A stretch of 12,958 nucleotides of DNA from an uncultured archaeon (GCA_964447495.1 CAYUTF010000088.1:1-12958); one strand, 5' to 3'; positions 2,032 to 11,963 are shown, numbered from the stretch's first letter. The notes: generated by a model from the letters alone, not told the origin. Made by a program: numbers and translations.

Positions 2032-2415
2032 ATGAAAAGTGATCAACATGTTGAAAAAGGATATAGTTCTAAAGAGATTGTTGGAAAGTTTATTGTTTTG
2101 AATAAATCGCAAACTAAATGGCTGGAAGGTTGGGTTGCCATTGAGAAAAATTTAAAAGAATTTTCGAAGACTTTGAGAGAAGAGATCGAATATGAGTGGA
2201 AATATGATAAATTAATTTTTGAAAATCTTAAACTTTTTGCGGTTGATATGAAAGATAAGACTATTATTGAAATAGTTGATAATATGATATTGAATAAAAT
2301 TAGGAGAAATGATAAGGTTCTCATAGTTCTTCTCGACAAATCGACAGGGGTAAAAAATGTTGAAGATATTGAGCTTGTCAATAAATGGGTTGTTCAAAAT
2401 ATAACACATTATTAA
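2032..2415 (+). CDS. Hypothetical soluble protein, 127 aa
   Basis: ATG-initiated ORF with natural K/E/I/V-rich composition, divergent from the GGR gene and followed by a hairpin and T-tract; no family motif recognised. Confidence 0.75.
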   Translation: MKSDQHVEKGYSSKEIVGKFIVLNKSQTKWLEGWVAIEKNLKEFSKTLREEIEYEWKYDKLIFENLKLFAVDMKDKTIIEIVDNMILNKIRRNDKVLIVLLDKSTGVKNVEDIELVNKWVVQNITHY

Positions 2416-2578: not shown

Positions 2579-3139
2579 TTAACTAAAACTGACAAACTTT
2601 TGAGTAAAAAGCGCATACCCATATTCATCAAGCCCACCACATTGTTCTATTATTTTTTCGGGTATAGGGTTATTTCCAATTCTTAATTTCTGTAATTTAG
2701 CGAGGTTTTCAAGGCCTTCAATATTCGATATACAATTACCATATAAATTCAAATCCCTTAAGTTTTTTAACTTATCTAATCCTTTAATTCTTTTTACCTT
2801 ATTATCTTCCAGTGAAAGAACTTCTAAATCTGTCAAAGTAGTTAATCCCTCTATTTGCTCAATTTCATTATTTGAAAGATATAAAATCTTTAATCTTCGA
2901 AGGTGCTCCAAACCTGTAATCTTGGTTATTTTATTGCCATAGAGATTCAACTTTTCTAAATTAAATATTGAATCTAAATTTTCAATAAGAGAAATATGGT
3001 TTTTAAAGAGAATCAGACTTTTTAAATCAGTAATTTTTTCCAATCCCTTAATTTGAGAGATATTATATAATTGCATATTTCCTAAGTATAAGGTGTGATC
3101 CTTAACTAAAACTTTCTTTCCGTGTACTATAACAAACAT
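2579..3139 (-). CDS. SDS22-like leucine-rich repeat protein
   Basis: Five full 22-aa repeats LxxLxLxxNxIxxIxGLxxLxx plus partial repeats at each end, finishing in LRIGNNPI. Confidence 0.93.
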   Translation of the reverse strand: MFVIVHGKKVLVKDHTLYLGNMQLYNISQIKGLEKITDLKSLILFKNHISLIENLDSIFNLEKLNLYGNKITKITGLEHLRRLKILYLSNNEIEQIEGLTTLTDLEVLSLEDNKVKRIKGLDKLKNLRDLNLYGNCISNIEGLENLAKLQKLRIGNNPIPEKIIEQCGGLDEYGYALFTQKFVSFS

Positions 3140-3171
3140 TTCTGTAAATTTTTAGTTATTAATAATAGAGC

Positions 3172-3702
3172 TTACCGCCATGAAGTATTATAAGTCTCGA
3201 GCATAAGAGTCGTTAAAGTTTCAAAAAGGTTTTCTACATTATGCCCTGATTTACTAGATGTTTCTAAGAATGTACTTAATTTTCGTGATTTCGAAAAATC
3301 ATTACCTTCTTCAATGCTTACTTGCCGATCTTCTTCTAAATCTTCCTTCCCTCCAGTTAATACAATTGGAAAATCCTGATTAGTCTCTCTAATCACCGAA
3401 AGCCAATCATCCACATGGCTAAGTGATGCTGAATTTGTGATATCATACATCATAATGCCTCCATGTGAACCTTTTATATAACCTCCAAGGAAAAATCGAA
3501 AGCGTTCTTCTCCACCAAAATCCCAAATCTGCAATTTGATATTCTTTTTATCGATCTTAAGTTTTTTTGTCTCTAAGCTCACTCCAATTGTCATATGTGT
3601 ATCGGATACAAATCGATTCGTCATATATCTCTTTGCTAAGGCAGTTTTACCACATCCCGCGTCCCCAAAAATACATACCTTAAAAATAGCATCAAATGAC
3701 AT
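3172..3702 (-). CDS. Rab-like small GTPase (Ras superfamily), paralog A
   Basis: G1 GDAGCGKT, G2 TIGV, KLQIW-DFGGE (G3), RFR, YDIT, G4 variant GKED, G5 ETSSK; GAGGA upstream of the ATG; no C-terminal Cys motif. Confidence 0.95.
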   Translation of the reverse strand: MSFDAIFKVCIFGDAGCGKTALAKRYMTNRFVSDTHMTIGVSLETKKLKIDKKNIKLQIWDFGGEERFRFFLGGYIKGSHGGIMMYDITNSASLSHVDDWLSVIRETNQDFPIVLTGGKEDLEEDRQVSIEEGNDFSKSRKLSTFLETSSKSGHNVENLFETLTTLMLETYNTSWR

Positions 3703-9117: not shown

Positions 9118-9639
9118 TTAGATAAATGCAATGTTGAGCATAGTTTTTACTAAGCTCTGAAATATTTTTTCGATATTCTCTCCCGTCTTACTCGAACATT
9201 CAAAAAAGGCATGGAGGTTCATTTTCTTTGCAATCTTCAATCCCTCTTTATAAGGAACCTCCCGCAAGACATCTAAATCTGCTTTTCCCCCAATTAATAT
9301 AACTGGGAGCTGATTATTCTTTGCATTTACTAATGTTAGCCAATCTAATGCATGTGAGAGGGAGGAATAATCCGTAATATCATACATTAAGATGCCTCCC
9401 ATCGCACCACATAAATAGTTAGGAAAAATAAACCGAAAGCGTTCTTCTCCACCAAAATCCCAGATCATTAGTTTTACTTCAAATCCATCAAGTCTCAGGC
9501 TCTTAGTTTCAAAATCGACTCCAATTGTCATTTTTGTATCGGATATAAATAAGTCTGTTATATACTTCTTCAATAAAGTGGTCTTACCACATCCCCCATC
9601 GCCAAAAATAACTATTTTGAAGATTGCATCATACGTCAT
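9118..9639 (-). CDS. Rab-like small GTPase (Ras superfamily), paralog B
   Basis: G1 GDGGCGKT, RabF1-like TIGVDF, KLMIW-DFGGE, RFR, YDIT, G4 variant GKAD, G5 ECSSK; no C-terminal Cys motif. Confidence 0.95.
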   Translation of the reverse strand: MTYDAIFKIVIFGDGGCGKTTLLKKYITDLFISDTKMTIGVDFETKSLRLDGFEVKLMIWDFGGEERFRFIFPNYLCGAMGGILMYDITDYSSLSHALDWLTLVNAKNNQLPVILIGGKADLDVLREVPYKEGLKIAKKMNLHAFFECSSKTGENIEKIFQSLVKTMLNIAFI

Positions 9640-9880: not shown

Positions 9881-10822
9881 ATGAAGTACGAAGAGAACAT
9901 ACAAAAGAAAGATCCCAACGACGCAGAAGGTTGGTTTAATCGTGGTTTAGTTTGTGGAGGGAATGGTGATATTAAAGGTGCTATCAATGCATTTAAACAA
10001 GCTCTCGTTTTAGATCCGGCTAATATTGAAGCGTGGATCAATTTAGGATTAGCATTTGGAATGCAAGGCAACTTGAGTGAAGAAATAAAATCTTATAAGA
10101 AAGCTTTAGAGTTGAACCCGAAAAATTCGGAGTTATGGGTTAACTTAGGAGTAGCACTTGGGCAAAATGGTGATGTAGATGCCGAAATTGAGGCTTATAG
10201 AAAAGCATTAGAGATAAATCCCCTTGATTCGGATATTTTATTTAATCTCGGTGCGGCTCTTGGAAAAAAGGAAAACTATGATGAGGCAATAGAATTATTT
10301 CAAGAAGCGTTAAAATTAAAGCCCAAGGATGCGGAATTATGGAATAATTTAGGTATGGCTCATGGATTTGCGGGAAATAGCAGTGAAGAACTAAAAGCTT
10401 TCAAGAAAGCAATAGAAATTGACCCTCAGCATGAGATTGCATGGTTTAATCTTGGTCTAATACATATTGACAATAATGATTTCGATAAAGCAATAGTGCA
10501 CTTTAAAGAAGCAATATCAATTGATCCTGAATTTAGTAATGCTTATTTTGGGTTAGGTTTTTCGTATGAAAAAGAAGAAGCATTTCAAGAAGCAATACAA
10601 ATGTATGAGAAGGTATTGGATTTAGAACCCGATGATGTTGAGACATGGCTTCATCTTTCTCTAGTTCTTCAAAAAATGGGAAACATTGATGATGCGTTAG
10701 ATACTTTGGAACGCGCAGTCATTCTTGATAAAGAGTTGGTATTACTTCTAGATAAAGAAGAGAACCTTCTTGAACCATTGCGCAAGCTTAAAAGTTTTGA
10801 TGAGATCATGAATAAAGCATAG
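9881..10822 (+). CDS. Tetratricopeptide repeat protein (8 TPRs, no other domain)
   Basis: Eight consecutive 34-aa repeats of type AWxNLGxx...AIxxFxKALELxP. Confidence 0.95.
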   Translation: MKYEENIQKKDPNDAEGWFNRGLVCGGNGDIKGAINAFKQALVLDPANIEAWINLGLAFGMQGNLSEEIKSYKKALELNPKNSELWVNLGVALGQNGDVDAEIEAYRKALEINPLDSDILFNLGAALGKKENYDEAIELFQEALKLKPKDAELWNNLGMAHGFAGNSSEELKAFKKAIEIDPQHEIAWFNLGLIHIDNNDFDKAIVHFKEAISIDPEFSNAYFGLGFSYEKEEAFQEAIQMYEKVLDLEPDDVETWLHLSLVLQKMGNIDDALDTLERAVILDKELVLLLDKEENLLEPLRKLKSFDEIMNKA

Positions 10823-10946: not shown

Positions 10947-10989
10947 ATAATAACATTTAATAATGAAAATATTTGATTAAATTACAATT

Positions 10990-11002
10990 AAAAATATATT
11001 TA
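10990..11002 (+). promoter_or_regulatory. Putative BRE/TATA element for the PAKKK microprotein gene
   Basis: AAAAA-TATATTTA about 35-45 nt upstream of ATG 11037; the AT-rich background weakens the call. Confidence 0.35.
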
Positions 11003-11036
11003 ACAATAACAACAGAATAAGGGTAATAGAGGAATT

Positions 11037-11141
11037 ATGGCAAAAAAGAAAGCTCCGGCAAAAAAGAAAGCTCCAGCAAAGAAAGCTCCAGCAAAAAAGA
11101 AGGCTCCAGCAAAAAAGAAAGCTCCAGCCAAGAAAAAGTAA
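11037..11141 (+). CDS. 34-aa Lys/Ala/Pro repeat microprotein, histone H1 tail-like (not in ORF track)
   Basis: Translates to MAKKKAPAKKKAPAKKAPAKKKAPAKKKAPAKKK*; AGAGGA at 11028-11033; base differences between repeat units are synonymous (CCG/CCA, AAA/AAG, GCA/GCC) and the one indel is a whole codon. Confidence 0.85.
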   Translation: MAKKKAPAKKKAPAKKAPAKKKAPAKKKAPAKKK

Positions 11142-11188
11142 AATAATGTTAATAGGTATAATTTGTACTATTTAGAATTTAATTAATA

Positions 11189-11200
11189 TTTTTTTTCTTT
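11189..11200 (+). terminator. Oligo-T terminator of microprotein gene
   Basis: T8-C-T3 starting about 48 nt after the TAA. Confidence 0.5.
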
Positions 11201-11450: not shown

Positions 11451-11963
11451 ATGATGTTGTTTGATCAACTTGATAAAACACAGTTAAAAGAACTCCTCGT
11501 AAAATGTTGGATGACTCATGATGGATCATGGTTTTATAATTGCGCCCGTGAATTAGGTATTGATACTGCTAACAGATTAAATAAAGCGGCTATCAAAAGT
11601 CTCTCGGTACTTGAGATGCAACGAATAAAGAAAGCAATGGGACAAGAGAAACTAAAAATTAAGACGTTTGAGCAATTAAAAAGCTTTATAGATGATGCAT
11701 TTAGTATATTAAAAGGAGATTTTATGGATTTTGAGTATACTTTCCCTGAAAAGAATCGGATTCATTGGGAAATGAACCAATGCTTTGCTTACAATGGAAT
11801 GAAAATGATTGGATTTAGCAAGCAATATGAATGTGGAGTTATTTATCGTATTAGTTGCTGGTTAGATGCTTTGGGAATTGACCATACCATCGAACCTGAA
11901 ATTGATATGTGCCTATTAAACTCGTATGAAAAATGTTCTGGAGATATTATTTTAAAGCTTTAA
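11451..11963 (+). CDS. DUF6125-like protein (V4R/H-NOX-like ligand-binding fold suspected)
   Basis: WMTHDGSWF...LGIDTANRLN...EMQRI motif and Cys pattern (QCFAY, YEC, C-L-L...KC). Start moved from TTG 11400 to in-frame ATG 11451/11454, since the extension is low-complexity AT-rich. Confidence 0.7.
   Translation: MMLFDQLDKTQLKELLVKCWMTHDGSWFYNCARELGIDTANRLNKAAIKSLSVLEMQRIKKAMGQEKLKIKTFEQLKSFIDDAFSILKGDFMDFEYTFPEKNRIHWEMNQCFAYNGMKMIGFSKQYECGVIYRISCWLDALGIDHTIEPEIDMCLLNSYEKCSGDIILKL

Follow-up and report, generated by a model that had tools for sequence, protein, structure and literature searches.

The locus considered here raises the question of whether a short and highly repetitive reading frame in an archaeal genome, which encodes a peptide of lysine, alanine and proline after the initial methionine, is a gene in its own right, and if so, to which known proteins its product is most closely related and which function may be assigned to it. 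The analyzed stretch of DNA (in the following referred to as the window) is 12,958 nt long and represents the whole of contig C88 of genome G000 (3.81 Mb, rated 98.4% complete). It has a G + C content of approximately 30% and carries two Ras-family GTPase genes, one LRR gene, and one TPR gene, a combination that gives the window an Asgard-like character, and the relatives with the same peptide carry the label Promethearchaeota. Both observations are consistent with the probable Asgard origin that had been proposed in a preliminary description of the window.

The reading frame and its flanking signals

The reading frame begins with an ATG at position 11037 and ends with a TAA stop codon at 11139–11141 on the plus strand. 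As had been described, it is complete and comprises 34 codons; its product, MAKKKAPAKKKAPAKKAPAKKKAPAKKKAPAKKK, consists of MAKKK followed by five APAKK(K) units and contains 17 Lys (50%), 11 Ala, 5 Pro, 1 Met, and no acidic residue, which was confirmed from the sequence and corresponds to a net charge of about +17. Tandem Repeats Finder delimited the repeat at 11040–11128 with a period of 18 nt, 5.1 copies, and a score of 143. Five APAKK-coding units were observed where 0.01 were expected, and none of 200 shuffled sequences got to five. Codon reading bore out the earlier statement that the repeats differ synonymously and by a single in-frame indel: the repeat-to-repeat variation is confined to CCG/CCA, AAA/AAG, and GCA/GCC exchanges, all of which are silent, and to one absent Lys codon. 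The ORF is the only copy in the whole genome. The features of the locus are as follows:

10956–10963 (+): TATA-like box TTTAATAA within the conserved block AACATTTAATAATG, 81 nt upstream of the ATG; putative archaeal promoter
10964–11036 (+): conserved leader region with the purine-rich, SD-like motifs AAGGG (11019–11023) and AGAGGA (11028–11033)
11037–11141 (+): 34-codon ORF plus TAA stop codon (MAKKK, then five times APAKK(K)), based on the sequence, the ORF call, and the repeat scan
11142–11196 (+): 3′ untranslated stretch that ends in a run of eight T (11189–11196); putative oligo-T terminator

In archaea, the TATA box of a promoter lies approximately 25 nt before the start site, and transcription terminates at oligo-T with no need for a hairpin. 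The TATA-like, ribosome binding site-like, and oligo-T signals noted in the preliminary description are present in the window, and all three are conserved in the ortholog found in genome G046. In a MAFFT alignment, the TATA-like box was in register with AACATTTATTAATG of the G046 ortholog and also with the CTTTAAAAA-type boxes at other micro-ORF loci. The leader aligned with that of G046 from about position −100 up to the ATG, with no alignment further upstream. At the position of the SD-like motif, other loci have AAGGAGAGGTAT (genus g1) or TAAGGAGACGTA (genus g22). The 3′ side of the G046 ortholog reads TTTAGAATT...T9...CTT, as in the window, approximately 47 nt past its stop codon. A hairpin terminator was looked for at the locus and none was found; a scan for sigma-70 promoters and hairpins yielded 8 promoter-like sites (4.0 expected) and no terminators, numbers that carry little information for an archaeon, given the bacterial consensus of the scan. 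These putative signals predict that the ORF constitutes an independently transcribed single-gene unit.

Two other readings of the same stretch were considered. An RNA element is without support, since an Rfam scan and a tRNA scan of the window gave no matches and the folding of the predicted transcript revealed no notable RNA structure (z = 0.26). An antisense ORF at 11000–11131 (43 aa, TTG start) was rejected, because its start is not conserved, unlike the sense ATG, SD-like motif, and promoter-like box; that this frame is open follows from the inability of Lys, Ala, and Pro codons to yield stop codons on the opposite strand.

The ORF is situated between the TPR gene, which ends at 10822, and a gene coding for a DUF6125 protein. 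The intergenic gap measures 577 nt if the latter gene begins at the TTG of its longest frame (11400) and about 628 nt if it begins at an ATG near 11451, which is suggested by an alignment of orthologs that starts only at residue ~16; the isolated position in a gap of roughly 630 nt, as noted previously, was corroborated within this range. A linkage to the downstream DUF6125 gene was rejected based on the lack of an APAKK unit at all 19 orthologous loci of other genomes. No conserved chromatin-related neighbor of the micro-ORF was found either, and the flanking genes vary among loci. In three genomes (G017 C3, G019 C16, and G009 C96), a micro-ORF of a second sequence type lies approximately 7–8 kb from a DUF6125 ortholog, which hints at a loosely conserved neighborhood of the two genes. 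The DUF6125 genes themselves are present in multiple copies, often in tandem, in relatives (for example G026 C143 and C17, G017 C3, G019 C16, and G009 C73). Elsewhere in the window, at 2579–3702 (−) and 9118–9639 (−), an LRR protein directly adjoins a Ras/Roc-family GTPase in a Roco-like layout split in two, and a second Ras-family GTPase is encoded upstream of the TPR gene. A sharp local skew of G over C (+0.40) at 2001–2500, with negative values in the surroundings, coincides with two overlapping ORFs at 2032–2415 (+) and 2043–2381 (−), both without a Pfam match.

Conservation and distribution of the stand-alone peptides

Stand-alone ORFs that encode K/A/P-rich peptides of 27–38 aa, all beginning with MAKK, were detected in 36 of the 135 genomes of the family. 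They occur in three genera, with 17/42 genomes in g1, 18/54 in g22, and 1/10 in g21. These counts were obtained by pattern and profile searches with strict queries, followed by manual reading of the loci, and represent a lower bound; 13 of the 36 copies stem from candidates first found as pattern or profile matches. The pattern obtained by back-translation of the first ten residues matched 25/42 genomes of the genus and 88/154 genomes of the order (reversed control pattern: 0), whereas the profile search alone retrieved 24/135 family genomes and missed five verified copies. When the 29 pattern matches from the genus were aligned, they comprised 11 histone genes, in which a MAKKKAPAKK start runs into the histone fold, 9 stand-alone ORFs of the APAKKK type (including that of the window), and 7 stand-alone ORFs of a MAKKKAPKKKPAPKKK type; the remaining two belong to none of these sets and are a longer K/P/T-rich frame (G050_C49) and an unrelated protein (G010_C160). 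Upstream, all three sets show a conserved block that is particular to each of them, and no genome on the genus-g1 list contains both stand-alone types together.

In an alignment of the window with 18 other stand-alone ORFs, the start MAKKKAPxKK was found in all 19 rows. A second alignment (window plus 13) showed M1, A2, K3, K4, A6, P7, K9, and K10 to be fixed in 14/14 rows, and position 5 to be an alanine or a gap in four rows. Neither alignment contained internal stop codons, and all length changes involved whole codons. At 13 loci, little or no variation was seen in a box of the form GAAAnCTTTAAAWA approximately 80 nt upstream of the ATG, in TAAGGAGACGTA just before the ATG, in the stop codon, and in a T-run 25–35 nt past the stop; very similar motifs, AATCTTTAAAAA and AAGGAGAGGTAT, are present at the G014-type loci of g1, and in all subgroups the TATA-like box is located approximately 75–80 nt upstream of the ATG. 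The version of these signals in the window is more divergent than that of the other loci and is common to the window and its closest ortholog in G046, where a neighboring gene is also kept (70% identity) in the same divergent orientation. Between the window and G046, 16 codon differences are silent and three are replacements (an APA-to-PAP swap), in addition to one codon indel; this hand count covers one pair only and is complicated by the repeats. Part of the silent AAA/AAG swaps could have arisen from repeat slippage.

The preliminary description had taken the repeat pattern as a sign of selection on the peptide as opposed to a neutral satellite, and had set conserved in-frame orthologs against frequent frameshifting in relatives. 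The orthologs in the 36 genomes are conserved and in frame, a stop codon follows the repeats in 36/36 copies, and no frameshifted copy was seen among the 36 ORFs read. In two copies (G018, L058, C353; and G138, L140, C140), a TAG or TAA occupies the position of a Lys codon in the relatives and shortens the peptide by about six residues, with the repeat running on in frame beyond the stop, which indicates that peptide length is loosely constrained. The comparative sequence data indicate that the ORF is a real, selected, stand-alone peptide gene that has been overlooked by gene callers, and not a satellite. Its predicted product is an intrinsically disordered polycation and belongs to a family of MAKK(K)AP... 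peptides of 27–38 aa in one Lokiarchaeia-like (Promethearchaeota) family of the Asgard archaea.

The gene is not universal, as many complete genomes of the family show no copy: these queries found no free peptide in 99 of the 135 family genomes, among them four of the nine genus-g1 genomes rated 100% complete (G007, G011, G016, and G053). Either the gene is dispensable or variants escape the queries. In the family f2 (14 genomes, some of them single contigs), the profile gave no match and the pattern matched four genomes; the two matches that were read are tailed histones. Among 265 genomes from the rest of the phylum, two gave a profile match, in both cases inside long frames (316 and 470 aa), and the free peptide was not found with these queries there, including the cultured Lokiarchaeia relatives searched. 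Viral contigs contained no match to the coding pattern.

Consistent with the earlier suggestion that the gene is unannotated and missed by gene callers, none of ten peptide sequences (the exact one of the window and nine relatives) was present in a collection of 15 billion proteins. A phmmer search against 1.84 billion representatives, for which the query is short and of low complexity, retrieved four matches at E ≤ 0.001, all of them in proteins of 181–383 aa. No Pfam or NCBIfam model matched the peptide (best E-values 0.81 and 0.98, respectively; the best Pfam model in a scan up to E = 1 was DUF1388). The clusters that lie nearest to the peptide in the ESM Atlas consist of unnamed hypothetical proteins of 36–43 aa (score 0.96). 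Among the named clusters, the nearest one (score 0.91) carries PF07382 in 17% of its members; this is regarded as a lead only.

Relationship to histone tails, HU extensions, and H1-like proteins

The genome G000 encodes a tailed histone of 80 aa on contig C24 (L068 1504–1746, +), which starts with MAKKKAAPAKKTKAESYIAKAPIRR (MAKKKAAPAKK...) and matches PF00808 with an E-value of 3.8e-9. Three more histone-fold matches on C17, C36, and C40 lie in frames of 73–76 aa, which are too short for a tail, and these histones are therefore apparently untailed. All four are encoded on contigs other than C88, and C88 contains no histone-like sequence; accordingly, a first-exon or frameshift link of the micro-ORF to a histone fold was rejected. 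The peptide itself includes no sequence of fold length and does not match the archaeal histone models (PF00808, NF043032). Tailed histones with a MAKKKAPAKK... start are found across the family and in family f2. One relative's tailed histone possesses a 23-residue tail, MAKKKAPAKKAAPAKKKAPAKKK, that is nearly identical to the free peptide, and another has a PAPKGK motif in common with the second-type free peptide. In a joint alignment of four free peptides, five tailed histones, and two bacterial forms, MAKKKA was invariant in 11/11 rows.

According to passages of a recent preprint (10.64898/2026.07.02.735847), tailed histones are abundant in Asgard archaea, their tails have a length of 16–32 aa with more than 30% Lys and are acetylated, and the HLoB histones of Loki have lysine-rich tails that are modified by an acetyltransferase; these passages contain no mention of free tail-like peptides. 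The peptide resembles tails of the HLoB/HMpB type in its start, its K/A/P composition, and the organisms in which it occurs, and the tail lengths overlap with its own. In contrast to these tails, it stands without a histone fold, is equipped with a promoter-like box, an SD-like motif, a stop codon, and a terminator-like run of its own, and is more repetitive and more lysine-rich (50%). As judged from sequence and context, the closest relative of the peptide is the N-terminal lysine-rich tail of the same genomes' histones rather than H1. An origin as the broken-off tail of a longer gene, which the preliminary description had named as a finding that would refute its reading, agrees with the occurrence of the same N-terminus at the head of longer genes, but an intact tailed histone is present elsewhere in G000, and conservation of the free form extends over three genera.

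The exact coding pattern was also searched in approximately 185,000 species genomes, which yielded 11 Asgard-labelled and 10 bacterial matches (21 in total). The Asgard matches represent eight free peptides, in genomes already among the 36 mentioned above, and three tailed histones. The bacterial matches are four HU proteins, one 63-aa frame, two long all-repeat proteins, and three free ORFs:

L115 1865–2344 (−), L120, L122, and L123: HU proteins of 159–165 aa with an N-terminal MAKKKAPAKKKAPAKKK tail, from Pseudomonadales and Gammaproteobacteria
L121: 63-aa frame with a start as in the HU fusions, which may be a truncated HU gene copy
L124 6883–7239 (−) and L125: Gemmatimonadota all-repeat proteins with AKKKAP-type units only, 118 aa and at least 66 aa
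L126 3337–3420 (−), L131 5514–5606 (−), and L132 1593–1745 (−): free MAKKKAPAKK... ORFs of 27–28 aa (counted from the ATG), from high-G+C Chloroflexi and Dormibacterota MAGs

The MAKKKAPAKKKAPAKKK start is identical in the four HU proteins, the two all-repeat proteins, and the three free bacterial ORFs. One of the HU proteins was scanned and matched PF00216 with an E-value of 4.3e-14; the other three have the same HU-domain sequence. By these sequence comparisons, a single peptide sequence exists in three settings: unattached, on a histone fold, and on HU.

The peptide had initially been likened to the tail of linker histone H1, a view of which only the compositional part could be upheld. A Lys/Ala/Pro composition like that of the H1 C-terminal domain is present, although composition alone is no proof of homology. 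Membership in the H1 family did not hold, as the peptide consists of repeats only, lacks the winged-helix globular domain of linker histones H1/H5 (PF00538), has no Pfam or NCBIfam match, and is closer to the histone N-terminal tail. Chlamydial Hc2 is a bacterial H1-like K/A/P repeat protein, and its model (PF07382) did not match the peptide at E-values up to 1. With the defining features examined being absent, the peptide is placed outside the H1, Hc2, and histone families. The accompanying statement that H1 is not a recognized component of archaeal chromatin is dated, since a linker-histone-H1-like structural cluster of Asgard proteins is listed in an October 2026 preprint (PMC13734099); that cluster is defined by fold comparison and is thus a different entity from the repeat peptide.

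Among eukaryotes, H1-like proteins that lack the globular domain and are associated with chromatin are described for kinetoplastids, dinoflagellates, and Toxoplasma gondii (PMC9769792). Both these proteins and the peptide stand alone, are rich in Lys, Ala, and Pro, and are similar to an H1 C-terminal domain on its own; the former are, however, eukaryotic, longer (91 aa in the case of TgH1-like), and experimentally supported in their function. With regard to bacteria, published work states that KPAA-repeat peptides bind DNA in vitro (PMC9239181), that PAKKA extensions of HU are implicated in DNA protection and charged extensions modulate DNA binding (PMC5683647), and that mycobacterial Ku carries a PAKKA extension (PMC3553676); in Streptomyces, a sirtuin appears to raise the DNA affinity of the lysine-tailed HupS. 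The KPAA domain of AlgP and PhaF, the PAKKA extensions of HU and Ku, and Hc2 have the same repeat chemistry as the peptide, but most bacterial H1-like repeats are parts of larger proteins or longer than 100 aa and belong to a different domain of life. The similarity to the bacterial K/A/P repeats may be convergent. Among proteins that stand alone, the tail-only H1-like proteins of the eukaryotes named above and the bacterial K/A/P repeat proteins come closest to the peptide as analogues. In the literature searched (supplements excluded), no description of a free K/A/P microprotein or tail-like peptide gene in archaea was found. Because the sequence is of low complexity, homology is beyond proof, and convergence could likewise account for its resemblance to histone tails, HU tails, and H1.

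Predicted function and meaning for Asgard chromatin

A polycationic, nucleic-acid-binding role is predicted as the most reasonable function of the peptide. More specifically, it is proposed with moderate confidence, based on sequence and on the analogies described above, that the peptide acts in free form as a polycation and attaches to DNA or to histone chromatin much as a histone tail or an H1 C-terminal domain does. The free peptide would then do in trans what the tails of histones and HU do in cis. It would bind by charge to the DNA phosphate backbone, probably of AT-rich DNA and also of DNA that has been wrapped beforehand by the histones of the cell, most of which lack a tail; neutralization of charge would be followed by compaction or bridging, as with protamines, histone tails, or the C-terminal domain of H1. 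Since the histone fold and HU, the two fusion partners, both package DNA, chromosomal or histone-wrapped DNA would be the most likely target. K/P motifs of the SPKK-like and AT-hook-like kinds bind AT-rich DNA preferentially in its minor groove, and such a preference would suit a genome with 30% G + C. The many lysines would provide a natural substrate for the acetylation and deacetylation machinery of Asgard histone tails; regulation by acetylation is plausible given the acetylated tails reported in the passages of the Asgard preprint (10.64898/2026.07.02.735847) and the four SIR2 (sirtuin) genes of G000.

Several alternatives have to be weighed against DNA binding. The peptide might be an RNA- or ribosome-associated polycation that binds rRNA, tRNA, or mRNA instead of DNA, for example as an extra tiny ribosomal protein, an RNA chaperone, or a condensate former. 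Charge alone does not tell DNA from RNA, the strong SD-like motif and the compact transcription unit would suit an abundant protein, and the tail-only H1-like protein of Toxoplasma gondii is also found with the nucleolus and ribosomal proteins (PMC9769792). However, both fused forms sit on DNA-binding folds (histone and HU) and none was seen on an RNA-binding domain, ribosomal genes adjoin the micro-ORF in no locus read, and the patchy distribution (36/135 genomes) is unlike that of a core ribosomal protein. An RNA-directed role is thus considered rather unlikely. Also unlikely, to a slightly greater degree, is a function as a mimic of histone tails, which would serve as a decoy, buffer, or titrator for acetyltransferases, sirtuins, and tail readers and would tune chromatin without DNA binding as its main task. 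The near-identity of the peptide start with the tail of the cell's own histone and the sirtuin genes of G000 are in line with such a role, but the micro-ORF has no linked enzyme gene, free peptides of the same kind are also encoded in MAGs of Chloroflexi and Dormibacterota, and a peptide with a charge of +17 will bind DNA anyway.

That the ORF is non-functional, being either a microsatellite of coding appearance or what is left of the 5′ part of a tailed-histone gene that was duplicated and is now decaying, is very unlikely. It is true that the same first ten codons open real histone genes, that the ORF is short and repetitive, and that two copies are truncated by stop codons; yet the start, stop, and flanking signals of the free form are kept in 36 genomes of three genera, substitutions appear skewed to silent sites in the ortholog pair counted, the contig contains no histone-fold remnant, and the promoter-like and SD-like blocks are conserved per subgroup and look alike between g1 and g22. 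Binding of polyphosphate had been listed as an alternative in the preliminary description. The K/P/A repeat domain of AlgP spaces polyphosphate granules and associates with them (PMC9239181), and any polyanion is bound by a polycation; this explanation has been weakened to the point of being highly improbable, as PPK1 (PF02503), PPK2 (PF03976), and VTC (PF09359) are absent from the 98.4% complete genome, while the control genomes gave matches. A regulatory leader peptide, in which a Lys-rich upstream ORF would sense the supply of Lys-tRNA or stall ribosomes to control DUF6125, can be dismissed with similar firmness despite its position upstream of this gene on the same strand and its many consecutive Lys codons, because a conserved T-run separates the ORF from the next gene, no such ORF precedes any of the 19 DUF6125 orthologs of other genomes, and the downstream genes differ at every other locus read and are convergent in G046.

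The proposed binding of DNA or histone chromatin can be combined with the occurrence of the peptide sequence on different folds into a more far-reaching reading, which is speculative and on balance improbable. The peptide would be a detachable histone tail, probably regulated by acetylation, that acts in trans on hypernucleosomes formed by mostly tail-less histones; it would be a precursor of linker histones in function, or an analogue of them, and also the mobile module that gave rise to the lysine-rich tails of chromatin proteins when it was fused to HU in bacteria and to the histone fold in Asgard archaea. If this were true, histone tails would have started out as genes of their own, or could still occur in that form.

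Much current work is directed at Asgard chromatin as the point of departure for eukaryotic nucleosomes, and lysine-rich histone tails count among the key transitions. The distinctive feature here is that the tail sequence of the host's histone also exists as a conserved, separate gene for a free peptide. Its host genomes also code for sirtuins and for histones, one of them tailed and several without a tail. Standard annotation is blind to this gene and tryptic proteomics would miss its product; it belongs to a class of tiny polycation genes in archaea and bacteria that is systematically missed by gene callers. The peptide would add an unrecognized component to Asgard chromatin, and it offers a testable model for the origin of tails or linker-type polycations, either by the fusion of separate genes or by tails breaking free.
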